From positions 1 through 55,532 of the forward strand of contig CAZCUQ010000002.1 in NCBI GenBank assembly GCA_964501705.1: DNA of 55,532 nucleotides. Reading direction: 5' to 3'. Shown here one piece after another: positions 5,491-27,156 of the stretch. The position numbers were made by a program, and so were the translations under genes. The notes below the pieces were generated by a model. It was not told the origin of the DNA. It ran no database searches and saw only the letters and a program-made list of their open reading frames with translations. This DNA is from an uncultured Ruminococcus sp. (GTDB lineage: Bacteria > Bacillota > Clostridia > Oscillospirales > Ruminococcaceae). The number at the start of each line of letters is the position of its first letter. The first letter of the stretch is position 1.

Positions 5491-5519
5491 TTGAAAATAA
5501 AACGTCATGGCGTTATAAT
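5491..5519 (+). promoter_or_regulatory. Sigma-70-type promoter of the XRE-regulator/PPTase pair
   Basis: TTGAAA (5491-5496), 17-nt spacer, TATAAT (5514-5519), 42 nt before the ATG at 5561. Confidence 0.5.
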
Positions 5520-5560
5520 GAAAATATGATAACGACCTGCTTTGAAAGGAGATAAATAAA

Positions 5561-6529
5561 ATGACATTAATGGAAAAGCTTGTAAGCCTGCGAAAGGAAC
5601 ACAAATTCTCTCAGGAGGAGCTTGCGGAAAAGCTCGGCGTGTCGAGACAGACAATTTCAAAATGGGAGAGAGGCGAAGCTTCCCCCGATATGGGAAACGC
5701 AATACAGCTTGCAAAGATATACGATATATCTCTCGACGAGATAGCGCGCTGTATTACGGGCGAGGAAGATCCCGTAAAGCCTCACGGAATAAGTCTTAAA
5801 AAGGAAACCTACAGAAACGCCGCCGAAAGTAGCGCCGCTTCAAACGAATATATAAGAATGGTTCTCCCCGAAAAGGAATCCGATGAGATATATCCTCAGC
5901 TGAACGCCTATAAATCGGCAGACGGCGGGAACGTCTCAGATAAAATGCCGGAAAGAAAGACCGTGCATGAAGAAAAAACTTTTGAAAACGATCAGGAATC
6001 CGTTCGTGTGCAGAAAATCAAGGGGTATTTTACGGATTATCAAAGAGAAGCTGTCGGAAAAAAGCTGATGAAATTTCCGTTCTGGGCGCTGGCGATTTTC
6101 ATATTCTTATTTTTCGGCGGAGTATTGCGTTTATGGGAATATTCATGGATAGTTTTTCTGCTCATTCCCGTTTACTATACAACGATAAAAGCGTGGGTCA
6201 GCAAAAACGCGTTCTATTTCCTTTATCCGCTTTTTGCGACGGCGGCGTTCTGCTTTTTGTGCATGGCTTTCAATGGCGAAAGTCTTATGGCAGCCTTTTT
6301 TGCAGTATGGACATTCGGCTCAATACCGCTTTATTACACGTCGATCATCGCGTACAGAAAGAAAAAATGTAAATTTTTCTGTTTTCCTGTGGCTGTTGCC
6401 ATATTGTTTGTTTCGGGAACATTGGTATTTGGCAGCGGAGAACTGTGGCTGTGGCTCTTTGCGCTGATACCGTTTTACTACATATATTCATCAAAGATAG
6501 ACGAAAAAATATTCGGGGGAAAGAAATGA
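5561..6529 (+). CDS. XRE-family HTH transcriptional regulator fused to a multi-pass membrane domain
   Basis: N-terminus LRKEHKFSQEELAEKLGVSRQTISKWERGEASP is a Cro/C1-type HTH. The C-terminal half has at least 5 hydrophobic segments with a thrice-repeated (L/S)IPxYYT motif. Confidence 0.75.
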   Translation: MTLMEKLVSLRKEHKFSQEELAEKLGVSRQTISKWERGEASPDMGNAIQLAKIYDISLDEIARCITGEEDPVKPHGISLKKETYRNAAESSAASNEYIRMVLPEKESDEIYPQLNAYKSADGGNVSDKMPERKTVHEEKTFENDQESVRVQKIKGYFTDYQREAVGKKLMKFPFWALAIFIFLFFGGVLRLWEYSWIVFLLIPVYYTTIKAWVSKNAFYFLYPLFATAAFCFLCMAFNGESLMAAFFAVWTFGSIPLYYTSIIAYRKKKCKFFCFPVAVAILFVSGTLVFGSGELWLWLFALIPFYYIYSSKIDEKIFGGKK

Positions 6530-7080
6530 TATATTTATTTGCTTCAAGGTTTATGGGACAAACCCGCGCCGAGCAGCATGAGGCGGCATACAAGCTTTTG
6601 TTTTCAAAGCTTCGGGAAGTATACAGCGTGAACGCTTCCTCGGAGATCATTCTGACGGGGATCAGCGGAAAGCCGTACTTTAAGGATATTCCGATAAGCT
6701 TTAACATTTCTCATTGCAGGGGATATGTATGCGCGGCTTTCTGCCGCAGTGACGAGGGAAACGTCGGAACCGACTGCGAAATGATACGTCCGTATAAGAA
6801 AAATATGGCGCTCAGATATTTTACCGATAAAGAGAATATCATCTGCGAAAATAACGATAAAATATTCACCGAGCTTTTTTCTCTGCACGAAAGCTATGTA
6901 AAATATACGGGCACGGGGATAGCGGGGCATTTTAAGGATATTTCCTTTGATATATGGGAGGGGAATATCCTCACCGACAGAAAAGATATTTCCTTCTATG
7001 CGTATGATATTGACGGAGGAATCGTCACTCTCTGCGCCGAAAAGAATTCGGGAGTCTATATGGGAAGTTTGAGTAAATAA
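6526..7080 (+). CDS. Sfp-type 4'-phosphopantetheinyl transferase
   Basis: The ATG at 6526 overlaps the upstream stop (ATGA). Motifs GKPYF, FNISHC, VGTDCE and LHESYVKYTG are typical of the PPTase superfamily. The ORF-track start at 6445 lies inside the upstream gene. Confidence 0.75.
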   Translation: MIYLFASRFMGQTRAEQHEAAYKLLFSKLREVYSVNASSEIILTGISGKPYFKDIPISFNISHCRGYVCAAFCRSDEGNVGTDCEMIRPYKKNMALRYFTDKENIICENNDKIFTELFSLHESYVKYTGTGIAGHFKDISFDIWEGNILTDRKDISFYAYDIDGGIVTLCAEKNSGVYMGSLSK

Positions 7081-7104
7081 AATGTGCTTGAAAGAGAAAA
7101 TACA

Positions 7105-7137
7105 GGCAGCACCGCACAAAGATTGCGCGGTGCCGCC
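7105..7137. terminator. Hairpin between convergent genes (possible bidirectional terminator)
   Basis: GGCAGCACCGC ... GCGGTGCCGCC stem with one mismatch, between the stops at 7080 (+) and 7162 (-). Flanking A/T runs are weak. Confidence 0.4.
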
Positions 7138-7161: not shown

Positions 7162-8034
7162 TTAGTCAGCAATAAGATTCACATAGGAATCGTCAAGCGT
7201 TTCATCTCCGTCAAACCCGCGGCACAAGCCATAATGCCCGTAATAAATGTCCTCAGCTTTATATTCCCCCGAATAATTCCAAACATCACTATGAGAATAT
7301 ACTTCCATAACTCCGCTGTAGGAATAAAAGCTGCTTATGCTTTTAATGAGAATATCCGCCTTATCCAAAGGAAAGCTTGTTTCACGGATAATGTATCTGT
7401 CGCCTTCATTTGTGCATACAGCGAAATGTGTTTTCCCCTCATAGGATGCTTCAAGAATATGTCCCTTTGTGAAAATATCGTCGTACATATATTTTTCCGT
7501 GTCACCCTCCCAATAAAACGCGTTTCCAATACTGTCAAGAAGGGCTGTGCGCAATACCGAAAACCTTTCAAAAGGACAAATCCTCCATTTAACATCACTG
7601 CTGTCGGAAGAGACATTTACCGAATAGGTGTGAAGCTTTGCAATTCTCTTATATCCCCACCTGTCATAAAGATAGACAAGCTCATCGGCTGCGGCAAATA
7701 CCATACCTGTTTTTCCGCTTTGCTTTGTAAAATTCATACAACCCTCTATCATATATTTCAGATTTCCGTGTCCCTGATAGTTTTTAAGAGTTGAAGCTGC
7801 AAAGGGAAATATGAAGCTCTGCTTTTGACCGTTTTTATCCTTGAAGTAAGCATCAAACCAATAAACCGCCGATTCAATTTCGGTTCCGTTAAAAACAACT
7901 AAAGTTCTTTCGGGAGAAAAGCTCCTTTCAAAGAAAAAGTCACAGTAGCCGTCCGCATCTTCGGGAAATCCCTCGCACCATATTTTTTTCAGAGTGTCAA
8001 TATCACTTTTCTTCGGATGTACCAGCTTTCGCAT
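7162..8034 (-). CDS. GNAT-fold N-acetyl/acyltransferase-like protein (last gene of the train)
   Basis: ATG at 8034 with GGAGG upstream, overlapping the upstream gene by 32 nt. The segment FPFAASTLKNYQGHGNLKYMIEGC resembles the GNAT acyl-CoA-binding core. Assignment is by eye only. Confidence 0.5.
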   Translation of the reverse strand: MRKLVHPKKSDIDTLKKIWCEGFPEDADGYCDFFFERSFSPERTLVVFNGTEIESAVYWFDAYFKDKNGQKQSFIFPFAASTLKNYQGHGNLKYMIEGCMNFTKQSGKTGMVFAAADELVYLYDRWGYKRIAKLHTYSVNVSSDSSDVKWRICPFERFSVLRTALLDSIGNAFYWEGDTEKYMYDDIFTKGHILEASYEGKTHFAVCTNEGDRYIIRETSFPLDKADILIKSISSFYSYSGVMEVYSHSDVWNYSGEYKAEDIYYGHYGLCRGFDGDETLDDSYVNLIAD

Positions 8035-11008
8035 TCAGTCCGCCTCCAATTACAAATAAGGTCAGCAAGCCGCAGAATATAACAGCAATTGTCAGTATTC
8101 CCTTTTGTTCTCCAAGCAGCAGCGCCGCACCGAATGCTACAGAACCGCAGGCAGACGTTATGCTTTCAATCGTGCTGTTGATTCCCAATGCGCGGCTTTG
8201 ACCGATGGTATTAACTTCCGGCATAGAAGAAAAATAAACCGACTGTGCTGATAATCCGAAGCTGTCAGCAGCCGCAAAAAGTACGATCACTATATAACAG
8301 CTTGCGATAGACGGATTGAAAACAAGATACAGCAGCGCCGCCGCATATATAAACGAAGCAAGTATCATAGACTTTCTTGTACCGAGCTTTGATATAACAG
8401 GCTCTCCCAGGGCATCTCCCGCATAAATGGATATTACCCCGCTTATAAGGAATGCCATAGATATTTCAGCGGCGGAAAGGGAATTTTCCTCCGCAACTAT
8501 CGGGAAATAATAGCTTAGGAATGATGCGCAAATCAAATAAGGAATAGCGAGACAAATGAAATAGCGTATCAGATTCGGAGTAATAAAGTCCCTGATCGAA
8601 GCATTGCTTCTTTTCCCTTCAATGACAGTCCGCTTGTTATCCAAAAGCATTATGCCAAGGATCAGAATGAGCACTGCACAAAAAGCGGCAGTGAAATAAG
8701 CAGCCGTTATTCCAAACTGCTCCCATAAAATTGAACCGACGACCGTTCCGCAGTTCATACCTGCAAGAAAAGCCGCATTGTAATGAACAAAACCCTTGTT
8801 GCGGTTTTCTTCTTCATCAAAGTCTGCTATCCGGGAATTTATCGCTATTGTGAGAAATCCTCCGCCTATGCCGCAGATACTGTTTGCGCATATAAGCATC
8901 CACAGATTTCCCGCAAAAGCTGACAGCATATTTCCTCCGATATAGAACACCGCTCCTATAAGGCACATAGGCTTTATTCCTGTCTTTTTTATGGCAAACC
9001 CACAGAACAAGGAAGAAATTGCCGATACGATCAGCTCCGCAGAAAGAGGCAGCGCCGCAGCAACTTCAGCCGGCATAGGAAAGTCTTCGTTCCAGAGCGA
9101 CATACCGTATATCGGCAGAAATGCGGTTGTTATATTCGCCGTAAAGAAAACCATAAACGCAACAGGACGAATGATCTCGGGGGAATATGAAGACTTGTCC
9201 GAAGCTGCTCTGTGCCTTGCGCGGAATGCCGTGCCGCCGTTCATGATCTCGGCAAACAGCAGCATTATTATTATAACTGCCATTGAAGAAAGTATCAGTA
9301 TATTCTTGTACAAAGCGTTGTTTTCCTGAACATAGATGTCATAATTCGCACCCACTTCGATAAATGCCAGTATTTCACCGTTTTCATCGTATGACGGAAT
9401 AAGCGCAAAGGTGTAGTTGCCCTCCGAAAGCTCATAATCCTGTGAGATATAGATTTCGCTGCTCTCCGCAAGAACTTGCTCGACAGAATTCGCGTAAGCC
9501 CCTGCCATAGGATACATTATGCTGTGTAATCCGTCATTTCTGTAAACCTCGCATATTACATTGCTGTGGATCCTGTATATTACAGCGTAAACATTGCGGG
9601 ATTCATTTGTATTGCTTTTCAAAACACTCAAAATGTCGTCGTTAAGTGCCTGATAGCTCTCGTCAAACCACATATCGGGAGAATTTAATTTTGCAACCGT
9701 TTCCTTGTCCATTGTGGCATCTATCAGATAGGCTATATTGGAAAGATTTTCGACGGATTCGGATACAAATCTTTCATTGCAGGTATTGAAGATAGTAAGA
9801 GAAACTCCTGCTGTTACCGCTATGGCAGTCAGCAAAACAAGTATCTGAGTATTATTTTTGGCAAAGCCCTCCGATCGGATCATACCAATGATTTTTATCA
9901 GTGAATAAACGGCAATTACCGCCATAAGCAGAATAGCGGCATATACACAAAGGACAATTACTTTATATCCCGGGCTTATGCCGATAATATCGCTGCTGAA
10001 TATTTCTTCGCCTGTACTGTTTACACAATTAACGAAATATGTATATTCAGATTCGTCCGTAACAGGGTCATAGCTGTATTCTGCCGATACCACAGAAATA
10101 TTTCCGCCGTCCGCGTTCAATCCCGAATAAAGAGGCGCTTCGGAAATACTTCCCGTGCTGCCGCCGCTGAAATGACCCTGTCCGATAACCTCTGTCAGCT
10201 GACCGTCAGTTCCTATGGAATACACCTTTCTGAGTCCGATGTCGCCTGCATAAAGCGTTCCGCTGCTGTAATCCACATCGGAAATAATGCTGCAATATTC
10301 ATCGGTGTCATTTTCAGACGCGTCATAAAGCAGCAGATCTTCTCCGTTTTGATATGTATGTATATCTCCGTTCATTAACGAAACATAAATATTAAGAGAA
10401 TCATCAAAGGTGCTGTCGGACACATCATCATATGCATTCTCCAAAGGCATAAAGGCACATTCCGCAGCTTCATTACCGGAGCATTTTTTAACATATATGC
10501 CGTCCTCACAAATCTCGGAAAAGTACAATTCACCCTTGATAATCCGAGGACTGTCAAGATAGATAACCTGAATATTATCTTCATCGCATGTATCCGCTTC
10601 GTAAAGCACTTCTCTTTTTCTGCCGCTGTTTGTGAATTTCAGTATTCTTTCACGATAAGCATAGGTTCCGTCATAATTATAGCTTTTATCGTGTACATAA
10701 AGCTCGCCGTTACAGGCAGCTGCGGCATCTGCATAATCAAATGTCCTGTCGGGATCGCCTCCGGGCAGTAAATATATAAGTTCATTGTTTTCATCGGTAA
10801 CGGCTATGGAATATGAAGAATCCGTAATGTAATAATTTCCGCTGTCGGTAAACACAGCCTGAACAGGATTTTCAAGATAATATTCACTTTCAAACGGATT
10901 ACTGCCTATGCAGTCTGCAAATGTGCTTACAAAAGCCGTAAGCAGCACCAAAGCGGTTATTATCAGAAATACAGAATTGCTTTTTATTTTCTCTTTAAAA
11001 TTTTTCAC
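8003..11008 (-). CDS. Large membrane protein: N-terminal TM + repeat (propeller-like) ectodomain + second Cache-like ectodomain + C-terminal MFS-type 12-TM domain
   Basis: I prefer the GTG at 11008 (AGGAG 7 nt upstream) over the ORF-track TTG at 11014. Recurrent GxLY...D repeats (GELYVHD, GELYFSE, GTLYAGD). The C-terminal ~400 aa is polytopic with MFS-like loops. Confidence 0.6.
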   Translation of the reverse strand: MKNFKEKIKSNSVFLIITALVLLTAFVSTFADCIGSNPFESEYYLENPVQAVFTDSGNYYITDSSYSIAVTDENNELIYLLPGGDPDRTFDYADAAAACNGELYVHDKSYNYDGTYAYRERILKFTNSGRKREVLYEADTCDEDNIQVIYLDSPRIIKGELYFSEICEDGIYVKKCSGNEAAECAFMPLENAYDDVSDSTFDDSLNIYVSLMNGDIHTYQNGEDLLLYDASENDTDEYCSIISDVDYSSGTLYAGDIGLRKVYSIGTDGQLTEVIGQGHFSGGSTGSISEAPLYSGLNADGGNISVVSAEYSYDPVTDESEYTYFVNCVNSTGEEIFSSDIIGISPGYKVIVLCVYAAILLMAVIAVYSLIKIIGMIRSEGFAKNNTQILVLLTAIAVTAGVSLTIFNTCNERFVSESVENLSNIAYLIDATMDKETVAKLNSPDMWFDESYQALNDDILSVLKSNTNESRNVYAVIYRIHSNVICEVYRNDGLHSIMYPMAGAYANSVEQVLAESSEIYISQDYELSEGNYTFALIPSYDENGEILAFIEVGANYDIYVQENNALYKNILILSSMAVIIIMLLFAEIMNGGTAFRARHRAASDKSSYSPEIIRPVAFMVFFTANITTAFLPIYGMSLWNEDFPMPAEVAAALPLSAELIVSAISSLFCGFAIKKTGIKPMCLIGAVFYIGGNMLSAFAGNLWMLICANSICGIGGGFLTIAINSRIADFDEEENRNKGFVHYNAAFLAGMNCGTVVGSILWEQFGITAAYFTAAFCAVLILILGIMLLDNKRTVIEGKRSNASIRDFITPNLIRYFICLAIPYLICASFLSYYFPIVAEENSLSAAEISMAFLISGVISIYAGDALGEPVISKLGTRKSMILASFIYAAALLYLVFNPSIASCYIVIVLFAAADSFGLSAQSVYFSSMPEVNTIGQSRALGINSTIESITSACGSVAFGAALLLGEQKGILTIAVIFCGLLTLFVIGGGLNAKAGTSEEK

Positions 11009-11018
11009 AGGCAAGCTC

Positions 11019-11939
11019 CTAAACTACTGTAACAGTATATTTATCGATCATTTTACAGGGACGAAGCAGAGTTTTGTCATTTTTAAGTCCCGCAACTCCT
11101 ATATCCTCACCAAGATTTATAAAGTCAACATTTTTATGTTCAATTGCCATCTGTCTGTTCAGCCAATATGTAAGTCCTCTTATCCTTTCGGCATTTTTCT
11201 GAAAATAATAACACATAGTGTTATCATTGATCTTTTCACATACCGCGAAGGATAAGGGCTTGTTTCCGTCGTATGAAACCGAGATCCTGTGTCTGTCGGG
11301 GACGTATATCTCCATAAATCTCCTAAACGCATTTTTTTCGCACCCATAAAAACAGTTTTCACATTTATGGACATCGCACCATTTATCAAAAATGCTCATA
11401 CAGTCGGAATATTTGTCGGGAGTATATTTTTCACATTTTAATTCGGGATAATGAGCTGTAATGTAATTATATCCCCCTCGTTTTGTTTTATTTGACGTAC
11501 CTGCCATAGATAAAAAAGCATCTGTGTCATAAAGATAATCGCTGAATTTTTCATCAAATGTTATTTTGGCAGAATAACCGTTTTCAATTATCAGATCCCG
11601 ATAAATTTCTGTTTCACTAAGATCAACATATTCAAAAAGCGGCTTAATATTATTTGAACGGCAATATCCGATAACAGCGTTGATTGCCTCGCACAATGCT
11701 TCATTGCTTTTGCTGAGGATACAAAAGCCCCTTCTGCTGTCAACACCGATTCCCGTGACAGCAATCGCATCTCTCAGCAAAGCATACCTGTAATTAAACC
11801 TTTCACCCCACGCATAGAACATAGAGAATGTAGTATCTCCGCAGAAATTATCATTCCTGTATTCTCTGAAATATTCATATGCCGTGCTGTCAAAAGCATT
11901 GAAATCGACAGCTGACGGGGAAAGCAAAGAAACAGCCAT
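11019..11939 (-). CDS. DUF2156-type protein (fold of the MprF aminoacyl-phosphatidylglycerol synthase C-terminal domain)
   Basis: ATG at 11939. Pattern CGDTTFSMFYAWGERF ... DYLYDTDAFLSMAGTSNKTKRGGYNY matches what I recall of DUF2156 proteins (D-x-S/T-F-x3-Y-x-W ... DYxY ... G-x4-KR-x2-N). Confidence 0.55.
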   Translation of the reverse strand: MAVSLLSPSAVDFNAFDSTAYEYFREYRNDNFCGDTTFSMFYAWGERFNYRYALLRDAIAVTGIGVDSRRGFCILSKSNEALCEAINAVIGYCRSNNIKPLFEYVDLSETEIYRDLIIENGYSAKITFDEKFSDYLYDTDAFLSMAGTSNKTKRGGYNYITAHYPELKCEKYTPDKYSDCMSIFDKWCDVHKCENCFYGCEKNAFRRFMEIYVPDRHRISVSYDGNKPLSFAVCEKINDNTMCYYFQKNAERIRGLTYWLNRQMAIEHKNVDFINLGEDIGVAGLKNDKTLLRPCKMIDKYTVTVV

Positions 11940-12006: not shown

Positions 12007-13404
12007 TTATCCTTCATCCATAATCGACTTAATATTTTCCTCATAACTATCCTTAAAAAAGCTGCACGCCATCGGATCCTTTTCAAAATATCCGCCGCAG
12101 GCAAGCGCATTTGCACGGCAGCCCGAGCAGCGGTATCTGTTTTCACAGGCAGCACATTCGGAATTATTTTTAAAAAGCTCTTTATATGTGTAAGAACAAT
12201 AGGTGTCGATTGGCGACACGCTGAGAGCTTTTTCAAGGCTTTGCCCTTCATCGAAAATATTCGGCGCTATGTTTTCCATAGAAGAACCACTCATTGCAAT
12301 ACACGGCAGCAGCCGTCCATCAGGAAGAAGATATGGAAAAACACGAACCGTTTCACAAAGATAATCAGATTCCCTTTCGCAGCTCCCGCAGCCTGACACA
12401 AAAGGTATATACCACTTTTCCGAATTATTTTTGAAGCCCTGAAAAAATCCGCCTAATCCAAGACGCAAAGGCATACCCTCGTTCTTGTATATTTTGATAA
12501 GCTTAATATATTCATCGAAAACCGCGGAATAATTTATGCCTCTGTCCGATTGACCCCGCCAGTTTCCCGTATCGACAATCGGCACTGCCTTCCAGTGCAT
12601 TACTCCAAGCTCCTTCATAAGTTCATATGTATCAATAAGCGAACCGATATTTCCGTTATGAAGAGAGGTTGAAACCGTAACTTCATATCCGCGGCTTCGT
12701 ATAAGTTTTATTGCGGCGACAGCCTTCTTTTCAGCGCCCTTAACTCCTCTGAGCCAGTCGTGACAGTTTACGCCGTCAAAGCTGAGCATAAAACAATTAG
12801 GATGAAGATCACGGCTTTGAAATTCGTCCATAAACTTTTCATCGACAGCAATACCATTGGTAAACACCTGAAGCAGTGTGATATGGTTTTCCGAAAGCAT
12901 ATCAACTATCTTCCAGAAATCCTTCCGAACAAGCGGTTCGCCGCCTGTAAGCGCAACCATATCAACGTTAGCTTCCCTGCACTGTCTTATGACTTCTCTG
13001 CATTTTTCAAGAGAAACCTCACCGTATTTGTTTTCATCAGAAGAGATATAGCAATGTCTGCACCGAAGATTACAGTTTCCTGTAACAGACCAAAGCATCG
13101 TGTGGGTGTATTTTGCCTCGGTATATCGGTATTTCTGATAATCCTCAAGTTTTTTATCCCTGCCGCACTCAACGAGAAAGCCTTTTGCGGCGGCAAGCTC
13201 TGTCATTTTCCTCAGCTTTTTCGGAATCAAAGGCTCGTCTGCCGATACTCCGCCTGCTGTAAGAAGCTCCAATGCCTCAAACTGCAATTGAGTAAGAATG
13301 AGAACACGGTCACGGATATTTTTACATTCAAGATCCACCACCGCATACTTTATATCTTTCCAGCCTCTCAGCGCATATTGGGGTTTAAGAGTAAAATACC
13401 GCAT
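12007..13404 (-). CDS. Radical SAM / SPASM-domain peptide maturase with N-terminal RRE-like region
   Basis: AGGAGAG RBS. CNLRCRHC (Cx3Cx2C) and TGGEPL SAM motifs. C-terminal Cys clusters CGSCERESDYLC ... PC and CAACENRYRCSGCRANALACGG. About 95 aa precede the rSAM core. Confidence 0.85.
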   Translation of the reverse strand: MRYFTLKPQYALRGWKDIKYAVVDLECKNIRDRVLILTQLQFEALELLTAGGVSADEPLIPKKLRKMTELAAAKGFLVECGRDKKLEDYQKYRYTEAKYTHTMLWSVTGNCNLRCRHCYISSDENKYGEVSLEKCREVIRQCREANVDMVALTGGEPLVRKDFWKIVDMLSENHITLLQVFTNGIAVDEKFMDEFQSRDLHPNCFMLSFDGVNCHDWLRGVKGAEKKAVAAIKLIRSRGYEVTVSTSLHNGNIGSLIDTYELMKELGVMHWKAVPIVDTGNWRGQSDRGINYSAVFDEYIKLIKIYKNEGMPLRLGLGGFFQGFKNNSEKWYIPFVSGCGSCERESDYLCETVRVFPYLLPDGRLLPCIAMSGSSMENIAPNIFDEGQSLEKALSVSPIDTYCSYTYKELFKNNSECAACENRYRCSGCRANALACGGYFEKDPMACSFFKDSYEENIKSIMDEG

Positions 13405-13571: not shown

Positions 13572-13577
13572 TGCTGA

Positions 13578-13877
13578 TTAAAGATTTACATTAAGATTGC
13601 CTACTCCGTTGCCGCATACAACATCTCCGGTATGACCCTTACCGCCTGCTACAGAATCAAGGTCATCCTCATCAAGCTCCGTGTTGTCACCGTTCAGATA
13701 TGCCTTTGCTTCCTCAATGGTAATGTCGAAGCCAAGCTTCTTTGCAAGCACGCCAATCTTTGCGAGCTGCTCATCGGAAGCCTCTTCAAACTTTTTATCA
13801 CCAAGAATAGTGATAAGCTCCTTCTTTGCCGCGTCATCCGCAACAGCCTTTGCGTAGAATTCAGTTACCTTACTCAT
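13578..13877 (-). CDS. RiPP precursor D, Nif11-type leader (99 aa); core KGHTGDVVCGNGVGNLNVNL
   Basis: AAGGAGG RBS. Leader MSKVTEFYAKAV ... SDEQLAKIGVLAKKLGFDITIEEAKAYL ... LDEDDLDSVAGG has the Nif11 leader pattern with a double-Gly cleavage motif. Confidence 0.85.
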   Translation of the reverse strand: MSKVTEFYAKAVADDAAKKELITILGDKKFEEASDEQLAKIGVLAKKLGFDITIEEAKAYLNGDNTELDEDDLDSVAGGKGHTGDVVCGNGVGNLNVNL

Positions 13878-15756: not shown

Positions 15757-15779
15757 AATAACCCCACCTTTCATATTAT

Positions 15780-19903: not shown

Positions 19904-20744
19904 ATTTACACATTCCTTCCAACCCGATTTCGCAAAGATATTTTACCCGTTCATCACGGGACATTTTTTTGAATTCATCGCTGACGGCAAACGCTTCGAG
20001 ATATTCGGAAGCGCTTACTGCCGTTTCGGAAACCGCTTTTCCCACCTTGTCGGAAAGACCCACGGTGTAAAATTTCAGCCTGCCGCCGCTTGTACCCGTA
20101 ATTCCCATAAATCTTAGAAAATGCTCGGCTTTATAATATCCGAACGCTTCATACAGTCCGAAAAAATCAGCCATTATCTCATCGTGCAGACGATTTTGCG
20201 AAAGACCGTATTTCTGTTTGGTGAAATAGTGGGTACACTCGTGCTCACGTCGAATTATCATTGACCTTTCGGACCATTCTTCTTCCGAAAGTCCCATCTC
20301 GGAAGCGGGGACATTGCTGTAAGGCTTTGCGGACAGAATAATAAATCTTGTGGATTTTCCGAACGCGAAGGATGCTCCCGTTTCGGAAAGACCGTCGGGA
20401 CGGATTCCCTTGTATATCGCATTTGTGACCAACGCTTCAAAGTCATTTTTATCGGACAGATAAATGATCGGTATCTCCCCCGCAAAGGAATTGTAAATTT
20501 CAAGTCTTATCCTTTCGGGTGATCTGAAATCAACAGGCCGCTTCGGGCATACATATCCGTTTATCGCCTCCGCTGCGCCGCGATCGGCAGCGACAGAAGC
20601 TATATTCCGCCATTTTTCAAGAAATGCCGTATCATACGCGATATTTTCAGTGCAGTCTGCAAACCCGTTTGATATGTATTCTCTGTACTCCTTCTCTTCA
20701 TCGGAAGAAAGAGCGTATTTGGCTATAATTTCGTTTATTGTCAA
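19896..20744 (-). CDS. Uncharacterised protein with HExxH motif (putative metallopeptidase)
   Basis: HECTH at ...IIRREHECTHYFTKQ..., followed by LHDEIMADFFG. I prefer the TTG at 20744 (GGAGGTG 5 nt upstream) over the ORF-track TTG at 20789, which overlaps the ABC gene. Confidence 0.5.
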   Translation of the reverse strand: MTINEIIAKYALSSDEEKEYREYISNGFADCTENIAYDTAFLEKWRNIASVAADRGAAEAINGYVCPKRPVDFRSPERIRLEIYNSFAGEIPIIYLSDKNDFEALVTNAIYKGIRPDGLSETGASFAFGKSTRFIILSAKPYSNVPASEMGLSEEEWSERSMIIRREHECTHYFTKQKYGLSQNRLHDEIMADFFGLYEAFGYYKAEHFLRFMGITGTSGGRLKFYTVGLSDKVGKAVSETAVSASEYLEAFAVSDEFKKMSRDERVKYLCEIGLEGMCKYA

Positions 20745-20766: not shown

Positions 20767-22929
20767 TCAGACCATCTGTCTGCTTGCAAGCTCCGCGAAT
20801 TTTCCGTTTAATGCCATAAGCTCGTCAAATGTCCCCTGTTCAACAACCTGTCCCTTATCAAGGTAGATTATTCTGGAGCAGTTCTTTATGGTTGAAAGTC
20901 TGTGCGCGATAACTATTCTTGTACATTTCATTTCTTCGAGAGTGTTTACCACCATTGCCTGAGTAATGTTGTCAAGAGCAGATGTCGCTTCATCGAACAT
21001 TACAATATCGGGATCGGACGCAAGCGCACGGGCAATCAGAAGCCTTTGCTGCTGACCGCCTGAAAGTCCTCCGCCGCCTTCCGAGATCATCGTAAACATT
21101 CCCATAGGCATTTTTTTTATGTCCTCGGCAAAGCCGGAACGTCTTGCAGCCTCCCACGCTTCATCCACAGTCAGCCAGGGAGCGGTTATTACGATGTTTG
21201 AGTAAATATCTCCGGAAAAAAGCTTTCCGTTTTGCAGAACAACACCTATCCTTCTTCTTACGCTTCTGAGGTCAAGCCCCTCTGCGTCCTGAGAATCATA
21301 ATAAACGCCGCCCGATTCGGGCTTTTCAAAACCTAAAAGAACTCTGAACAGCGTGGATTTTCCGCAGCCCGATGAGCCTACGATTCCCACATACTCCCCT
21401 GCTTTGATGTGCAGTTCCAAATCGTTCAGAACATATGGCATATCCTCGTTATAGCGGAATTTCACACGGTTCACTTCAATATCACCGCTGAGCTTGTCAA
21501 CACGTTTTTTATAACCCGAATTTTCAGGCTCTGCCTCAATAATCGGACGTATAATATCGAGTGCGGGACGAAGCGAAGCTACCTGTGTCGTAATATTCGC
21601 CATTGACATGACCGCACCTGTGAACAGCGCATACGCCGAGTTGAATGCAATATAATCCGACGCACTGAGCCCGTTTACATAAGCGGTATAATAAAGTACA
21701 ACTGTACCGCCGAACACCGCGAAATTTGAAAGCGCACCCGAAACAGCAAGGAATGTATGAGGCATAATGTGCAGCTTACTGTAAAGCTCTGCCCACTTGG
21801 AATATGCCCTTGTTTCCGCTCCCGACACCTTTATTTTGGTGATTCCGTTCAGAAGCTGAAATACGATACTCGAAAGCTTTCCGTTAATTTCATTGTTCTC
21901 CTTAGTCTGCTTTATCTGAACAAGTGCTGTGATAACATATATCGCAACCATCAGCAGCACAATGATGAGCGAAGGAAGAAACATTTCGGGAGATATTGAG
22001 CTTATCTGAAACAGATAAACAAAGGAGAATACCGAAGCAAGCAGCGTAGGCACAAGCTGTCCGCCGAGAATCCCGCATATCTGATTTATCGAGGCTGCCC
22101 GCTGGGTAAGATCGCCCGAATCATATTTTTTGAAAAAGTCCACAGGAAGACTCATAAGCCTTGCCCATACCGCATTTTGCGCAAGAAGCTCCAGCTTGTT
22201 TCCGATACGCATTACCCATACAGTACGGGATAGTTCGAATAAAGCCGTCACCACAACCGTACCGACAATAAGTACGCTTATGCCGAATATCTCCTCTGAC
22301 GTACCCGAAGGAACTACTGTGTTAAACACAAATTTATTTATCGCAGGCATTATCATTCCGACGAGACCCGCAACAAGACTTATTGCAAGCAGGCAGACAA
22401 CATCAGCGGCCGAAAATGCGCCTGTAAGGAACTTGTAAAATTCCCCCATAGTGAGCTTTCTGTTTTCAAAGGGCTTGTAAAAGCAGTAGGCAACCGGAGA
22501 AAATTCCTTTGCGCGCTTCTCGTTAAGCTTAACTTTGTTTCCGTTGTCATCAAAAAAATAATATCCGCCCTGAATTGAAGGGATCAAAGCACATGAAGAG
22601 CCGTCTTTCAATGTACAGAGAAGGGGCATTGAGCCGTCCTTCCACCACTTTCCGACAGTGACGATCTTTCTGCGCATTACACCCGTTTCGGTCATAGCAA
22701 ACTGCATTACGCTTTCGGGATCTGATAATCCCGACGGAAATGAAAGGATATCCGTTTTGAGAAAGCTGCATATTCTTATCATTTCAAGAGCTGTGCGGCT
22801 CAGGGCATTTCCCGAGGACTTTGCCGCCGACGCACTGCCAAGGGAGGTGTATACGCTTTCAGCGGAGCTTTTCAGTGTCTGTGCATCAAGCTGTTTTTTA
22901 AGCTTTACTCTTTCGGAAAAAGTGTACAT
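20767..22929 (-). CDS. NHLP/Nif11-type bacteriocin export ABC transporter, second subunit (no catalytic peptidase Cys seen)
   Basis: I prefer the ATG at 22929 (GAGGTGA 6 nt upstream). Six-TM exporter domain, Walker A GSSGCGKST, signature LSGGQQQR, Walker B MFDEATS. Confidence 0.8.
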   Translation of the reverse strand: MYTFSERVKLKKQLDAQTLKSSAESVYTSLGSASAAKSSGNALSRTALEMIRICSFLKTDILSFPSGLSDPESVMQFAMTETGVMRRKIVTVGKWWKDGSMPLLCTLKDGSSCALIPSIQGGYYFFDDNGNKVKLNEKRAKEFSPVAYCFYKPFENRKLTMGEFYKFLTGAFSAADVVCLLAISLVAGLVGMIMPAINKFVFNTVVPSGTSEEIFGISVLIVGTVVVTALFELSRTVWVMRIGNKLELLAQNAVWARLMSLPVDFFKKYDSGDLTQRAASINQICGILGGQLVPTLLASVFSFVYLFQISSISPEMFLPSLIIVLLMVAIYVITALVQIKQTKENNEINGKLSSIVFQLLNGITKIKVSGAETRAYSKWAELYSKLHIMPHTFLAVSGALSNFAVFGGTVVLYYTAYVNGLSASDYIAFNSAYALFTGAVMSMANITTQVASLRPALDIIRPIIEAEPENSGYKKRVDKLSGDIEVNRVKFRYNEDMPYVLNDLELHIKAGEYVGIVGSSGCGKSTLFRVLLGFEKPESGGVYYDSQDAEGLDLRSVRRRIGVVLQNGKLFSGDIYSNIVITAPWLTVDEAWEAARRSGFAEDIKKMPMGMFTMISEGGGGLSGGQQQRLLIARALASDPDIVMFDEATSALDNITQAMVVNTLEEMKCTRIVIAHRLSTIKNCSRIIYLDKGQVVEQGTFDELMALNGKFAELASRQMV

Positions 22930-22943
22930 ATTTTTCACCTCGG

Positions 22944-25091
22944 TTATTCACTCTTGACAAGAGCCGCATATTTTCCGTTCTTTGCAATCAGTTCGGAATG
23001 TGTTCCCCGTTCTGTTTCCCTGCCGTATTCAAGCATTATTATTTCATCGGCGTCACGGATAGTTGAAAGTCTGTGCGCAATTACAAAGCAGGTCATACCT
23101 CTGCGTTTTACGGCATCCATTACAAGCTTTTCCGTTGTGGGGTCAAGAGCGGAGGTTGCCTCATCGAGAATAATTACAGACGGGTGCGCCGCAAACGCTC
23201 TCGCAATTTCCAGACGCTGCCTCTGACCGCCCGAGAAATTTCCGCCGCCTTCCGCTATCACAGAATCGTAGCCGTCCTTCAGCGCCATAATATCATTATG
23301 TATGCAGGCGTCCTTGCAGGCTTCGATAATTACCTCCTCGGGGATTGTGCTGTCCCACATAGTAATATTATCCCTGATAGTTCCGCTGAAAAGGGATATA
23401 CTCTGGTCAACCACAGCCACCGAGCTTGTGAAAACATAACGATCGATATCCCTGATAGGCTTGCCGTCAAAAAGCAGTTCGCCGCTTCTTTGAGGGAAAA
23501 GCCCGGAAATAACCTTTGCAAGTGTGGATTTACCGCTTCCGCTTCCGCCTACAAGAGCAATCATACTGCCCTTTTTTGCCTTCAGATTAAAATTTTCGAT
23601 AAGCGCGGGTGCAAGGGAGCTGTAGCCGAAGCTGATATTTTTCAGTTCGACCTCACCGCTGAGTTTTTCATATTCGCCTTCGGCAATGCTCGGGTCAAAA
23701 TCAACATCGGTTTTATAGTTCATAACGTCCTCGACCCGCTCCATACTTCCGCTCATATCCTGGAATACCTGAATAGAGTTGACAAGAGAACTGACAGGAG
23801 AAAGGAAGAGCGTCATAAAGCTCTGGAAAGCCATCAGCGAGCCGATGGTAAATTCTCCGTTAAAGATATTGTACACACCTATCATAAGAACCGTTCCCGT
23901 ACTGAGTCCCGAAAGGATCTGCGGGGCAATGCTTATCATAGTGTTTCTTCTGCGAAGCTCCAGCATTGCGTTATTATACTTGGTCTGGTAGCCTGAGATC
24001 TTCTCAAAAAAGCCTGTTTCCGAGCCGCTGGCTTTAATGGTTTCGATCATAGAAACGGCAGCTATCATAATACCCGAAAGCTTTCCGCTATCACGCTGGA
24101 TAGACTTTGCCGCGTTGGTATTCTGCTTGGAAACCATTCTCATAATGATAATGTTTATCACCGCGACCGCAATGCCGATAAGCGACATTGCGGCACTATA
24201 GTATATCATAACCGCAAGATAAACACCTATCATAATGACATTCAGGATAACAGGAGCAAGCTGTGTGCAGAGTGCGTAAGCGATCTCGTTATTGCTCTGC
24301 TGTCTTGAGGAAATATCACCCGCAAATCTCTGAGAGAAAAACTCCGCAGGCAGTCTGAGAACGTGCCACATAAACGCAGAGGACGAACCGATACTCATTT
24401 TTGACTGAAGCTTTGCAAGATAAATACCCCTTAGCATTTCGGCAACAAAACCGATAACTAAAGATATTCCCATAGCAAGCAGAAGCGGCTGCATTTTATC
24501 CGCCGCACCGCCTATCAGCACATCATCGGTAAACATTTTGTAAAACACGGGACGAACAAGACCTATCACAGACAGAATAAGTCCCATTGTCAGAATGAAG
24601 ACCAGCAGCGCACCGCTGCCGTCAAGCCGCTTTTTAACAAATGCCATAACGCTCTTAGGCTTTCCCGACGGCGCAAAGCTTTCGGAGGGTTTGAATTTTA
24701 ACGCAATACCCGTAAACGAACGGTCAAATTCCTCCATATCCACCAAAACACGACCGCCTGCGGGATCATTGATAACAGCCTTATTTCCTTTAAAACCGCA
24801 AAGCACGACAAAGTGATTGAAATTCCAATGAATTATCATCGGGAAATCGGTCTGTTCCTTTATTTTTTCAATGCTCATACGAAAGCCCTTTGCCTCAAGA
24901 CCGTGATGCCTTGCGGCAAGGCTTATATATTTGGCTGTACTGCCGTCCCTGGAAACGTTACAGTCGGAACGGAGCTGTTCCAGCGGGATATATTTTTTAT
25001 AGTACGCAAGTATCATTGCAAGTGAAGCGGCGCCGCATTCAAGCGCTTCCATCTGCAATATTACAGGCACTTTTTTTGCAGTATTCTTCAT
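22944..25091 (-). CDS. Bacteriocin-processing ABC transporter with N-terminal C39 peptidase domain
   Basis: AAGGAGG RBS. C39 motifs LQMEALECGAASLAMIL (Cys) and NHFVVLCG (His). Walker A GGSGSGKST, signature FSGGQRQR, Walker B ILDEATS. Confidence 0.9.
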   Translation of the reverse strand: MKNTAKKVPVILQMEALECGAASLAMILAYYKKYIPLEQLRSDCNVSRDGSTAKYISLAARHHGLEAKGFRMSIEKIKEQTDFPMIIHWNFNHFVVLCGFKGNKAVINDPAGGRVLVDMEEFDRSFTGIALKFKPSESFAPSGKPKSVMAFVKKRLDGSGALLVFILTMGLILSVIGLVRPVFYKMFTDDVLIGGAADKMQPLLLAMGISLVIGFVAEMLRGIYLAKLQSKMSIGSSSAFMWHVLRLPAEFFSQRFAGDISSRQQSNNEIAYALCTQLAPVILNVIMIGVYLAVMIYYSAAMSLIGIAVAVINIIIMRMVSKQNTNAAKSIQRDSGKLSGIMIAAVSMIETIKASGSETGFFEKISGYQTKYNNAMLELRRRNTMISIAPQILSGLSTGTVLMIGVYNIFNGEFTIGSLMAFQSFMTLFLSPVSSLVNSIQVFQDMSGSMERVEDVMNYKTDVDFDPSIAEGEYEKLSGEVELKNISFGYSSLAPALIENFNLKAKKGSMIALVGGSGSGKSTLAKVISGLFPQRSGELLFDGKPIRDIDRYVFTSSVAVVDQSISLFSGTIRDNITMWDSTIPEEVIIEACKDACIHNDIMALKDGYDSVIAEGGGNFSGGQRQRLEIARAFAAHPSVIILDEATSALDPTTEKLVMDAVKRRGMTCFVIAHRLSTIRDADEIIMLEYGRETERGTHSELIAKNGKYAALVKSE

Positions 25092-25102
25092 ATTGTGCCT
25101 CC

Positions 25103-26014
25103 TTATGATACAAGAAGCTCAACAGGAAGATACTCGCTTGTCACAACTATGATTGAACACTGCGTTCCAAGCTCAACAGGAAGGTTTTCTCCTTTACTGT
25201 TTGACCATTTATATGAATTGCCTGAATTTTCATCGAGATCCAATCTGATTCTTATTTCCACAAATGAACCTTCGGGAAGTATATTTTCCACATAAGAAAG
25301 AGTACCCATCTTTGAGATAATACTTTCCTCCGAAACCGGCGTTTCGGATATTGAAGTGATAATACCCGTCATATATCCGTATTCCTCTCTTGCGGCATAA
25401 GAAGGAGACACCTGTGCCGTCATACCGAGGCTGAGAGAATTCGCGGTCTGCATAGGTACATAAGCAACTACCTCATTATATCCGCTGTCAGACATTACAG
25501 ACGATATTGTGTCGCCTGCTTCTATCGCACTTCCGCAGGGCTTTACAGACTGAATATATCCCGAACTGCTGCTTTTTATGACTGTTGTGGCGACATAAGT
25601 GTCAACAAGCTCTTCTATTCTGTTTTCAAGATTTATATATTCATCGCTGCCGTTTTCAAGCGCTGCCAGCTCATAGCGATAAGCGTCAATTTTATCCAGC
25701 AGTTCATTATTTGATACGACCGCGATTATATCTCCAATGTTGACATAATCGCCGCTGCTTACGAGAACATCTGTGACTACGCAGCTTCTGTCTGCTGTGC
25801 TGCTTAAAATATTGTTATTTGTAAAAACAACGCCCTTAATATTCACTCCGTTTGTGATTTTATATGTAACGCTCCAAACAATAAATGTAATAAGTGCTGT
25901 CACAAGTGCCATATAAATTATCCAGACAGACGGGCGCATTATCTTTACCTGCTTATCAAGCTGCTCGGGAGTAGCCATTGTATCAAGAGCGGTTTTTCTG
26001 AATAGTTCTGCCAT
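25103..26014 (-). CDS. HlyD-family secretion adaptor of the bacteriocin export system
   Basis: N-terminal FRKTALDTMATPEQLD, then a single TM, then a barrel-sandwich/lipoyl-like region (GDYVNIGDIIAVV ... AGDTISSV). Confidence 0.7.
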   Translation of the reverse strand: MAELFRKTALDTMATPEQLDKQVKIMRPSVWIIYMALVTALITFIVWSVTYKITNGVNIKGVVFTNNNILSSTADRSCVVTDVLVSSGDYVNIGDIIAVVSNNELLDKIDAYRYELAALENGSDEYINLENRIEELVDTYVATTVIKSSSSGYIQSVKPCGSAIEAGDTISSVMSDSGYNEVVAYVPMQTANSLSLGMTAQVSPSYAAREEYGYMTGIITSISETPVSEESIISKMGTLSYVENILPEGSFVEIRIRLDLDENSGNSYKWSNSKGENLPVELGTQCSIIVVTSEYLPVELLVS

Positions 26015-26034
26015 TATTATTCACCCCTTACATA

Positions 26035-27156
26035 TCATTCCGTACGGAATGCGCCTTCTGAAAATACAAGAATATCATCACCTGACGGAATAAGCGAACC
26101 ATCCTCGGTGTATGTGACCTTGCCCCGCAGCCCGTCATAGCCATCTGCCGATTTCAGCATATCCATAAGTGCGGCAGAATCGGAAACGCCCGAGTTCAGA
26201 GCACTGCTCATCATATAAATAAGGTCATAGGACTGAACTGCCCTTTCGTGCATTTCCAATCCGTATTCAGCCTTAAACCTTTCGGAAACTTCATAATATG
26301 AATCACCTTCGCCTGTAAGATAAAGAGGAACAATAACAGTTCCGTCCATATATTCGCCGTTTTGCGCGATATCATTATCGGTATCCATTACATAATCGGA
26401 TACGACCTGAATATCAGAGCCTTTTTCCCGAAGCATTCTCACAAGGTCGCTGTTATAACTGTAATAGTTGCTCACGCAGACAACATCAATGCCAAGAGAA
26501 ACCCATCGGGCATAAGCAATGTCGAATTCCTCCTGCGTGTAGGGTCCGACAACGGTATCCGCAAGCGTAACGGAGGAATCCGATATTTTCGACTGAAAGC
26601 CTTTCAGCTCGTCCTCCTCATACTCCGTGTCGGAATGGCAGAAAGCAGCACGCCTGAAACCATTGTCTATAACATATTCACCCATTATGCTGCCTGCCGC
26701 CTTTGCATTGATAAAGTCAACGAGAAGATAGTCATAGCCTTTTTCTATGGTATGATTATAGCAGCCGTTTGTAATAATAAATGGCTTGCCGGCGGCTTCA
26801 TAAATGTCCGCAACGGTGTCAACGTAATCAATTTCCTGCTTGACTATAACAGCGGCAATATCGGTATCGGCGGCTATCTCATTGGCATAAGCAATTGCCT
26901 TATGATAATCCGCGTCGTCATCATAGAAATTCACATTAACGGTAATGCCTGTCTTTGCCGAAAAATCCTTTGAAGCCATCTCCATTGCCTCTACAGTTCC
27001 GCCCTCATTATAAAACAAATCATCTCCGACAACAGCAATGGTGATAGCGTTATCACTTCCAACGGGCTTCCAAGTCTCAACAGCTTCATTACACGCCGAA
27101 AACAGCGATACAGTTATTATTGCTGCTGTAAAAGACATTGATTTTTTCATTTTCAT
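26035..27156 (-). CDS. Orphan lipoprotein of the type-1 periplasmic-binding-protein (Leu/Ile/Val-binding-like) fold; first gene of the train
   Basis: Signal plus LFSAC lipobox-like site. ITIAVVGDD ... NVNFYDDDADYHKAIAYANEI ... AAVIV ... PFIITNG resembles PBP1 solute-binding proteins. No permease or ATPase partner is adjacent. Confidence 0.55.
   Translation of the reverse strand: MKMKKSMSFTAAIITVSLFSACNEAVETWKPVGSDNAITIAVVGDDLFYNEGGTVEAMEMASKDFSAKTGITVNVNFYDDDADYHKAIAYANEIAADTDIAAVIVKQEIDYVDTVADIYEAAGKPFIITNGCYNHTIEKGYDYLLVDFINAKAAGSIMGEYVIDNGFRRAAFCHSDTEYEEDELKGFQSKISDSSVTLADTVVGPYTQEEFDIAYARWVSLGIDVVCVSNYYSYNSDLVRMLREKGSDIQVVSDYVMDTDNDIAQNGEYMDGTVIVPLYLTGEGDSYYEVSERFKAEYGLEMHERAVQSYDLIYMMSSALNSGVSDSAALMDMLKSADGYDGLRGKVTYTEDGSLIPSGDDILVFSEGAFRTE

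Follow-up and report, generated by a model that had tools for sequence, protein, structure and literature searches.

What is made by a gene cluster in which the precursors of a ribosomal peptide, a radical S-adenosylmethionine (radical SAM, rSAM) enzyme and a set of acyl-chain enzymes follow one another on the same strand? This question is raised by a locus from an uncultured Ruminococcus sp. (contig CAZCUQ010000002.1 of assembly GCA_964501705.1), studied here within a stretch of 55,532 nucleotides (positions 1 to 55,532 of the contig, called the window). Listing and translation of the open reading frames (ORFs) show a train of minus-strand genes that begins at 27156 and ends at 7162, converging on a plus-strand pair at 5561-7080 that codes for an XRE-type regulator and a phosphopantetheinyl transferase (PPTase); the unbroken train described in the original prediction, which had been drawn from the DNA letters, is present with all its genes. 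The answer proposed here, with a probability of about 0.6, is that this operon (~20 kb) would yield an rSAM-crosslinked peptide, acylated on the lysine that opens its core (Lys1) by a transferase of the GNAT family, from a chain carried by an acyl carrier protein (ACP) and with the leader still attached, which would then be cut and exported. The original prediction had likewise proposed a fatty-acylated, rSAM-modified product of the class of peptides made on the ribosome and modified after translation (RiPPs), a reading that finds support at the sequence level in synteny and in the non-housekeeping scores of the lipid genes.

The proposed acyl-ACP:peptide N-acyltransferase is a 294-aa tandem-repeat GNAT protein (GNAT294; 19019..19903, on the minus strand like every other gene of the train), followed by genes for the ACP, a ketosynthase (KS) and a KS-like partner of the chain-length-factor (CLF) type. 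Whether these genes, which resemble those of a fatty acid synthase (FAS), travel with the precursors in relatives had been set beforehand as a test. Neighbourhoods were gathered through homologues of the rSAM, GNAT and DUF7005 proteins and through a metagenome scan with a GNAT profile, and were compared with the window proteins by tblastn. GNAT294-ACP-KS-CLF are contiguous and in this order in all 10 loci that reach far enough (L001, L003, L085, L086, L090, L092, L093, L098, L100 and L101; L091 ends within the KS gene), with GNATs 34-48% identical to the window protein (tblastn), and Nif11-type precursors (one to seven) together with an rSAM orthologue occur in 7 of the 7 loci extending that far, so that the lipid genes and the precursors do co-travel. 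The ABC1/ABC2 exporter is present wherever the related sequence reaches, and the minimal form, L001, consists of ABC1-ABC2-GNAT-ACP-KS-CLF-precursor-rSAM, after which comes uvrB. Other genes vary: the window shares a ketoreductase (KR) with L003, L086, L093, L098, L100 and L101, a DUF2807 lipoprotein with L003, L086, L100 and L101, DUF7005 with L086, L100 and L101 (rSAM-fused in L085 and L092), and a block composed of a DUF2156 protein, a major facilitator superfamily (MFS) protein and a second GNAT-like protein (GNAT290) with L003 and L086 (L100 is cut within the MFS gene), while a second rSAM gene is found in L003 and L101 and an extracytoplasmic function (ECF) sigma factor in L100 and L101. 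From this comparison, the predicted conserved core comprises GNAT294-ACP-KS-CLF, the precursors and the rSAM enzyme, with DUF7005, KR and the DUF2156/MFS/GNAT290 genes as accessories. Distant GNAT homologues (33% identical, in L095 and L096) stand directly beside an rSAM gene of 33-35% identity (35% in L095) with neither ACP nor KS, suggesting that the peptide, and not the lipid, is the constant partner of the GNAT.

The lipid module itself was scored against housekeeping fatty acid synthesis. The ACP (18739..19005) matches PP-binding (E 1.5e-6) and carries a GLDS47V motif. The FabF-like KS (17546..18736) has both ketoacyl-synt N and C domains and is predicted to be active, its triad being intact (Cys152 in ACASG, His285 in HGTGT and His322 in GHCMG); its best PDB match is 9s5h_B (E 6e-55), and it also resembles AmcF (182 bits) and the ishigamide-type KS 6kxd. 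The CLF-type partner (16518..17546) has no catalytic triad: GGDP (with an invariant G143-D144-P145) replaces the Cys motif, the two His positions hold N/G and Glu, and the Gln seen at the active-site position of aromatic polyketide synthase (PKS) CLFs is not present. A profile of nine CLF orthologues matches KS structures, best 9s5h_C, and since a single PDB entry supplies the best match of both KS (chain B) and CLF (chain C), the two fit a heterodimer. The KR, an accessory gene (15780..16517), is a FabG-like 3-oxoacyl-ACP reductase (adh_short_C2, E 2e-63). Domain matches thus bear out the private ACP, KS, KS-like CLF and short-chain dehydrogenase-type ketoreductase that had been proposed, and three of these proteins score below the equivalog cut-offs of their housekeeping counterparts (KS against FabF, 263.7 with a cut-off of 493.75; ACP against AcpP, 27.2 with 70.45; KR against FabG, TIGR01830, 261.4 with 297.75), which, with a CLF that has lost its Cys-His-His triad, sets the module apart from housekeeping fab genes. 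A catalytically dead KS partner is a trait of dedicated KS/CLF systems and not of bulk lipid synthesis. Among the cluster genes and the near-flank ORFs scanned, up to ~36.4 kb, there is no FabD, FabH, FabZ, FabI or acetyl-CoA carboxylase (ACC). As a separate observation, the L101 cluster also contains, at 18900-20852, genes for a dehydratase of the FabA/ApeI type, a KR and a carboxyltransferase of ACC; this set, which supports real chain building by the module, could be a more complete lipid module or else a housekeeping fab operon next to it.

Four tandem genes code for the precursors (14670..14999, 14302..14640, 13953..14279 with a GTG start, and 13578..13877), with the cores KGNSSRISLYRGDTLKFECNGSNGGGVTQS, KNQTHYTEIHVCEVGGQAGYDDNNNEPTVHPAY, KGDHYETKIIVCQVGGKPEVSESGPLISE and KGHTGDVVCGNGVGNLNVNL, respectively. 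Their description as Nif11-type leaders is probable: all four end in AGG, and the leader model TIGR03798 gives 20.5-31.9 bits (31.9 for precursor 1), just under its cut-off of 32.3, with weak Pfam Nif11 matches. Each of the four window cores contains exactly one Cys, as had been read from them. Across related loci the leaders are well conserved and the cores hypervariable, with two recurrent features. Lys occupies core position +1 in 14 of the first 25 in-cluster cores and lies within +1 to +5 in 22 of them, against a Lys frequency of 5.5% elsewhere in the cores (binomial P ~5e-12 and ~4e-11, with no correction for relatedness); L100 and L101 bring the two counts to 20/32 and 29/32. A Cys followed by Gly 2-6 residues on (Cys-x(1-5)-Gly) is found in 22 of the 25 (e.g., CEVGG, CQVGG, CTTGG, CDTGG), and the CE[VI]GG core type of precursor 2 recurs as CEVGG in L085 and CEIGG in L092. 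Both features persist outside the lipid clade: L095 has a Nif11-like precursor just upstream of its GNAT/rSAM pair in which ...SGG is followed by a core starting KGITVDF... and containing CPVGG, and L006 and L088 (rSAM relatives at 37-41%, with no GNAT or lipid genes) have Cys/Gly-rich cores with C-x(2-5)-GG. For this reason the Cys-Gly motif is assigned to the rSAM enzyme and the N-proximal Lys to the GNAT, which adds two predictions to the original one, a putative acceptor site at Lys1 and Cys-x(1-5)-Gly as a candidate rSAM motif. An unusual precursor was also noticed in L094 (416-1108), where a Nif11-like leader ending in AGG precedes a core of ~150 residues (GDKPKRSRLRACFVEN...) and adjoins a 32% GNAT294 homologue.

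The rSAM enzyme (12007..13404; Radical_SAM, E 1.5e-23) is a putative radical SAM/SPASM peptide maturase with a CxxxCxxC motif at C111/C115/C118 and seven C-terminal cysteines (C350, C368, C417, C420, C426, C429 and C447) that are invariant across 27 homologues and follow the SPASM pattern C-x12-G-x4-C ... C-x2-C-x5-C-x2-C ... C. Although the Pfam SPASM model itself does not match the window protein, the SPASM assignment already made for it can be kept because of these seven cysteines and because PF13186 is annotated in some relatives at 35-40% identity. The nearest solved structures in a PDB profile search are SkfB (1.7e-22), SuiB (1.4e-13), PqqE and CteB, of which SkfB, SuiB and CteB crosslink peptides, and the product is most likely an intramolecular thioether at the conserved Cys, as judged from these relatives and the core motif. 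Homologues at 54-71% identity are almost all metagenomic, with one from a Ruminococcus sp. metagenome-assembled genome, and among the matches listed by a scan of genome contigs with the rSAM alignment, L005 and L006 were the true relatives, the rest being generic radical-SAM motif matches. That the rSAM clade extends beyond its lipid-linked part is indicated by a proteusin-like cluster in L088 (10001-21197) that contains a 41% rSAM, Nif11 precursors and four B12-binding radical SAM genes, one of them of double length, and no lipid genes.

The AlphaFold2 (AF2) model of GNAT294 (pLDDT 91.5) is that of a tandem-repeat GNAT, and its top Foldseek matches are the tandem GNATs MAB_4324, that of clavulanate, VipF and MshD (E 1e-14 to 1e-10; PDB entries 7q3a and 2wpw among them). 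Its family is small, with 38 word-indexed matches among 5.8 billion clusters and, in a full hidden Markov model search, 274 representatives among 1.84e9 (86 at E <= 1e-30). The two GNAT-like proteins and the DUF2156 protein that had been listed all find a match, but the two GNAT matches in Pfam are weak (27.3 bits for Acetyltransf_1 and 25.8 for Acetyltransf_9) and the conserved core holds GNAT294 alone. Precedents for the proposed reaction exist: NpuN, a selidamide tandem GNAT of ~295 aa that has been likened to VipF, acylates only Lys1 of a precursor with a Nif11 leader cleaved at GG (PMC13060382; PMC13647313), and GdvG, from goadvionin biosynthesis, accepts only ACP-bound acyl donors (bioRxiv 10.1101/2023.10.25.564083). 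All related loci keep the tight, fixed GNAT-ACP order of the window, which speaks for a donor bound to the ACP.

The three-gene export set of the NHLP/Nif11 type that had been recognized in the locus is confirmed, since all three proteins score above curated equivalog cut-offs: the HlyD-like adaptor (25103..26014; NHLM_micro_HlyD, TIGR03794, 166.8 against 156.2 bits), an ABC exporter with an N-terminal C39 peptidase (ABC1, 22944..25091; NHLM_micro_ABC1, TIGR03796, 945 against 853.3 bits) and a second ABC permease/ATPase (ABC2, 20767..22938; NHLM_micro_ABC2, TIGR03797, 739.5 against 709.4 bits). The Peptidase_C39 domain of ABC1 (Pfam E 3.4e-36) is the predicted leader peptidase, cutting after GG. 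With this peptidase inside the exporter, the alpha-amine of residue 1 would not be free in the cytoplasm, which favours acylation of a side chain with the leader attached, and by analogy the closest precedent would be the selidamide-type acylation of the Lys1 side chain rather than N-terminal acylation.

Put together, the pathway would start with conversion of the ACP to its holo form by the PPTase at 6526..7080 or by another one elsewhere in the genome, followed by loading of malonate by the host FabD. The KS/CLF heterodimer would build or extend an acyl chain on the ACP and KR would reduce the 3-oxo group, so the chain of the window is probably 3-hydroxyacyl; variants with the FabA-like dehydratase would yield unsaturated chains. 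The rSAM enzyme would bind the leader and form an intramolecular crosslink, most likely a thioether, at the single Cys of Cys-x(1-5)-Gly. The tandem GNAT would then acylate core Lys1 at its epsilon-amine, with the acyl-ACP as donor and the leader still on, and finally the C39 domain of ABC1 would cut after GG, and ABC1, ABC2 and the HlyD protein would export the lipopeptide.

Several points weigh against this scheme. Its chain length, acyl acceptor and rSAM reaction are all deduced from sequence, and the rSAM enzyme could catalyse a reaction other than thioether formation, as it reaches no equivalog of a characterised maturase (best NCBIfam score 98.9 bits, far under all cut-offs; e.g., StsB 73 against 625 and WgkB 92 against 650). 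Homology of GNAT294 to the selidamide GNATs was considered and rejected: in hhalign its profile aligns to NpuN (whose sequence was rebuilt from the supplementary alignment of PMC13060382) with a probability of 3% and E 0.014, over the N-terminal domain only, which is not significant, and what the two have in common is the tandem-GNAT fold and the size only. The XRE/PPTase pair is absent from beside the cluster in all related loci examined. KR is absent in L001, L085 and L092, where KS/CLF/ACP would either rely on host enzymes or yield a 3-oxoacyl product. As for the cores, the related loci come from few clades, so that the counts are not independent; Lys is missing at +1 in 12 of 32 and anywhere near the N-terminus in 3 of 32, and three of the first 25 lack Cys.

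The gene between ABC2 and GNAT294 encodes a predicted metal-dependent protein of the DUF7005 family (19896..20744; PF22541, E 3.5e-52). Its start is most likely the TTG at 20744, giving 282 aa as in P0159 and hence no overlap with ABC2. This is the HExxH protein of the original prediction, and its invariant residues are H168-E-x-x-H172-Y, H187-D-E and D193. The family has more than 390 members (word-indexed search); its AF2 model is confident (pLDDT 94, pTM 0.90), with no Foldseek match in the PDB (best E 0.42), the PDB sequence search was also empty, and no NCBIfam model matched, HExxH models included. DUF7005 is fused to the C-terminus of the rSAM enzyme in L085, L092, P0020 and P0021 and to the N-terminus of the GNAT in P0292, and because of these fusions it is placed in the same complex as both; tentatively, it may be a metal-dependent accessory maturase that partners the rSAM enzyme and the GNAT. 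FxsB-type fusions resemble the rSAM::DUF7005 proteins of L085 and L092 in that an rSAM/SPASM maturase carries an HExxH domain at its C-terminus; DUF7005 matches no NCBIfam HExxH model and has no solved structural relative, and its homology to the HExxH domain of FxsB is conjectural. The family is not restricted to this pathway, since in L089 (8726-10864; GCA_000703065.1, a 3.86-Mb Ruminococcus-type genome) DUF7005 lies away from RiPP genes, beside an unannotated 414-aa protein.

An invariant HExxH with an HDE motif, in a protein physically fused to the rSAM enzyme or the GNAT in relatives, would suit a peptidase that removes the leader inside the cell, leaving a free alpha-amine on residue 1 for the GNAT to acylate, in the manner of goadvionins and lipoavitides. 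This order of events is the one followed by the non-selidamide GNAT-lipidated families named in PMC13647313 (lipolanthines, goadvionins, lipoavitides and aphotorhaptins), all of them N-acylated after leader removal. It is nevertheless unlikely here: L001 and L003 keep GNAT/ACP/KS/CLF without DUF7005, the C39 leader peptidase of the exporter itself implies a leader that is present at export, the modelled fold of DUF7005 matches no known peptidase, and N-terminal acylation could do without a Lys at +1, the single residue that is conserved in the cores. The same Lys, left otherwise unexplained, speaks against a division of the operon between two separate products, in which ACP/KS/CLF/KR (with or without the GNAT) would make a lipid or polyketide of small size, for instance an N-acyl amine, and share operon and exporter with an unlipidated rSAM bacteriocin. 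Such a division could appeal to the likeness of the KS to small-molecule systems (AmcF of cispentacin at 182 bits, and 6kxd), to the accessory MFS transporter, which could export a small molecule, and to the fact that the action of the GNAT on the peptide is deduced; however, the lipid genes always have the peptide exporter on one side and the precursors on the other, at gaps of 0-25 nt, distant GNAT homologues retain precursor and rSAM without lipid genes, and the gene fusions of DUF7005 tie the GNAT to the rSAM enzyme, so that it appears a rather poor candidate. Finally, GNATs in RiPP clusters are often plain N-acetyltransferases, DUF2156 is of the same type as the MprF synthase domain, which serves resistance to cationic peptides, and the DUF2807 and binding-protein lipoproteins suggest envelope functions, but a GNAT that merely acetylates the peptide or gives self-immunity via acetyl-CoA, beside KS/CLF/ACP/KR, DUF2156 and MFS proteins that remodel membrane lipids, is highly improbable given a GNAT-ACP order fixed and tightly spaced in every related locus, which points to an ACP-bound donor, the retention of KS/CLF/ACP without DUF2156 and MFS proteins in L001, L085, L092 and L101, and a dead KS partner of the kind generally typical of dedicated KS/CLF systems.

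If acylation of Lys1 from acyl-ACP is retained as the preferred reading, the closest known systems are the selidamides (kamptornamide, phaeornamide and nostolysamides, with KspN, PhaN and NpuN), which share with the window a leader ending in GG (in the window of probable Nif11/NHLP type), a C39-peptidase exporter, a tandem GNAT of ~295 aa and an expected acceptor in the first core Lys. They differ in their class II lanthionine synthetase, where a radical SAM/SPASM crosslinker is found here, in their arginase, of which there is none in the window, in taking the donor from the acyl-CoA or acyl-ACP of primary metabolism, where an apparently dedicated ACP/KS/CLF/KR is found here, and in their hosts, which here are strict anaerobes of the Ruminococcus type. 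In goadvionins (GdvG) and lipolanthines (microvionin), as proposed here, a RiPP core is joined to a chain from cluster-encoded PKS/FAS enzymes, and the likeness extends to gene content, as genes for a carrier-protein acyl donor and a GNAT occur in the window and in all 10 related loci of sufficient length; however, these are avionin peptides of actinobacteria, which lanthionine-type enzymes and a decarboxylase produce and which are N-acylated after leader removal, goadvionin moreover uses a type I PKS, and no domain of a Lan-type synthetase or Cys decarboxylase is found in any gene of the locus. Lipoavitides (LpvE) also combine discrete, non-modular FAS-type genes in a RiPP cluster with a joining GNAT. 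There, a FabH-type condensation leads to a short CoA-bound 4-hydroxy-2,4-dimethylpentanoyl group that is attached N-terminally to a peptide with aminovinyl-methyl-cysteine (AviMeCys), whereas here a FabF-like (not FabH-type) KS stands with CLF and ACP, and no HopA1, phosphotransferase or decarboxylase gene is present in the locus.

The two halves of the cluster have relatives of their own. Like the sactipeptide and ranthipeptide maturases (SkfB, CteB, RumMC and also SuiB), the rSAM enzyme has an rSAM core with auxiliary-cluster cysteines and acts, presumably, on leader peptides with an essential Cys; unlike in those systems, each window core has a single Cys, no equivalog is reached, and no known member of that group is linked with a lipid module or a DUF7005 domain. 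The lipid genes are like those of the highly reducing type II KS/CLF systems (ishigamide Iga11/12, cispentacin AmcF/G and aryl polyenes) in pairing a FabF-like KS with a partner that lacks the triad and in having a separate ACP and a KR, to which one variant locus (L101) adds an ApeI-like dehydratase, but those systems make free small molecules, and the module described here is embedded in a RiPP operon. The current literature on GNAT-lipidated RiPPs includes lipolanthines, goadvionins, lipoavitides, selidamides, aphotorhaptins and acylated lasso peptides, none of which pairs an rSAM crosslinker with KS/CLF/ACP and none of which comes from Clostridia, and targeted literature searches found no description of an RiPP cluster with rSAM, KS/CLF/ACP and GNAT genes, in agreement with the earlier statement that this combination is not a recognized characterised family. 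The logic, in which a GNAT joins a RiPP core to a cluster-made acyl chain, is already known, and what is new is the parts list and the host.

Described lipidated ribosomal peptides are scarce, coming from actinobacteria, cyanobacteria and proteobacteria and relying on lanthionine-type chemistry, or being acylated lasso peptides or daropeptides. If the proposed pathway is true, a family that unites rSAM crosslinking and a KS/CLF lipid supply of its own would bring in a RiPP/polyketide combination absent from the papers searched, its acyltransferases, probably taking acyl-ACP donors, would be of use for genetically encoded lipopeptide engineering, and abundant rumen and gut anaerobes would become a source of bioactive lipopeptides. 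The DUF7005 fusions offer a direct way into a widespread family that conserves its metal-binding residues and lacks any solved structural relative. A wider proposal, conceivable although rated somewhat short of an even chance, is that the window holds the founding example of a new family of RiPP lipopeptides from strictly anaerobic gut and rumen Clostridia, defined by an rSAM crosslink at a single Cys, by a polyketide-like chain built by KS/CLF and placed on Lys1, by DUF7005 as a third maturase whose unseen metalloenzyme fold would dock the rSAM enzyme and the GNAT, and, in some members, by aminoacyl-tRNA-dependent tailoring through DUF2156.

The tailoring part of that proposal concerns the accessory genes. 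The stand-alone DUF2156 protein (11019..11939), of the MprF C-terminal type (LPG_synthase_C, E 2e-20; PDB 2hqy, E 1.3e-12), is a candidate aminoacyl-tRNA-dependent transferase, as judged from these matches. The next gene encodes a membrane protein of 1003 aa (8003..11014) with a C-terminal MFS transporter (MFS_1, E 3.8e-27, residues 619-928), whose N-terminal ~600 aa have no Pfam match and, from their sequence, seem to include large loops. GNAT290, a weakly supported GNAT-like protein of 290 aa (7162..8034; Acetyltransf_9, 25.8 against 25 bits), has no meaningful PDB sequence match and has orthologues 57-59% identical in L003 and L086. The DUF2807 lipoprotein (15016..15774; PF10988, E 3.9e-17, with a lipobox) possibly has an envelope or immunity function, and tentatively all of these, the DUF2156, MFS, GNAT290 and DUF2807 proteins together with the binding-protein lipoprotein, may serve tailoring, immunity or sensing. 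A constant association of KR with the DUF2156/MFS/GNAT290 block, which would have suggested aminoacylation of the 3-hydroxyl, was reduced to a loose idea, because L101 has KR and no such block within the 20.9 kb fetched.

As regards the layout of the train, the spacing of mostly 0-25 nt noted before is approximately right: intergenic distances are -32 to +29 nt once starts are corrected against ribosome-binding sites, but the last precursor gene has gaps of 75 and 173 nt on its two sides, and the rSAM gene is followed by one of 67 nt. The overlaps that had been listed are real by their coordinates, namely KS/CLF at base 17546, GNAT294/DUF7005 at 19896-19903 and MFS protein/GNAT290 at 8003-8034. 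The train opens with a lipoprotein of the periplasmic-binding-protein type (26035..27156; Peripla_BP_6, E 2.2e-18; signal peptide with a Cys lipobox), which adjoins the export genes in L085 and L100 too. At the other end, both convergent units are closed by a strong hairpin terminator at 7105-7137, whose 15-bp stem has 10 GC pairs and is followed by a T-tail; the convergent PPTase gene ends just before it. On the plus strand, a sigma-70-like promoter at 5491-5519 precedes the XRE-type regulator (5561..6529; HTH_3, E 5e-20), whose C-terminal half is hydrophobic and probably membrane-spanning, and the Sfp/AcpT-type PPTase (6526..7080; ACPS, E 6.7e-10, with AusB, AcpT and HetI matches all below cut-off) has its start at 6526, where ATGA overlaps the stop codon of the XRE gene, by which the two genes are predicted to be translationally coupled. 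The ACPS and HTH_3 matches uphold the Sfp-type PPTase and XRE pair as such, but the pair adjoins none of the related loci; the PPTase is a plausible activator of the cluster ACP. Regulators of another type were observed elsewhere: partner-switching proteins (a SpoIIE-type phosphatase and an HATPase_c_2 kinase) stand beside L001 (1-1664), L101 (1560-3947) and L088 (3472-7259), with STAS in L088, and their presence beside three related clusters hints at stress-linked control. The Rfam search of the window found no regulatory RNA and one tRNA only.

Directly upstream of the Peripla_BP_6 gene lies a tyrosine recombinase on the minus strand (27474..28595; Phage_integrase, E 4.9e-26), and a recombinase 65% identical to it holds the same position in L100 (728-1828), though the surrounding DNA has diverged. 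The gene has on both sides a 36-nt repeat (86% identical; 27371-27406 and 28756-28791) with a long palindrome inside, and near it is a perfect TTGACA-17-TATAAT promoter (28699-28727). A direct repeat of 99 nt (2727-2825 and 28833-28931, with a spacing of 26,106 nt) brackets the cluster and its recombinase and was considered as the attachment (att) sites of an integrative island; this was rejected, because the repeat belongs to an intergenic element of ~100 nt that occurs four times in the window, is sharply bordered and has the shape of a hairpin, and is thus read as a dispersed repeat. The four copies, all on the plus strand (2195-2293, 2727-2825, 28833-28931 and 40433-40531), run from TATAGTAAACGACAT... 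to ...ATGCCGTTGAC and have an identical 35-nt core; the element has no Rfam match and folds as a long hairpin (z -2.6 and -5.2) in which the differences between copies are paired, and it could be a dispersed repeat of the repetitive extragenic palindrome (REP) or miniature inverted-repeat transposable element (MITE) type, or a regulatory leader. To the left of the cluster are SpoIIR (1477-2094, E 6e-45) and tRNA-Thr(GGT) (2461-2536), which fit a host among the spore-forming Clostridia.

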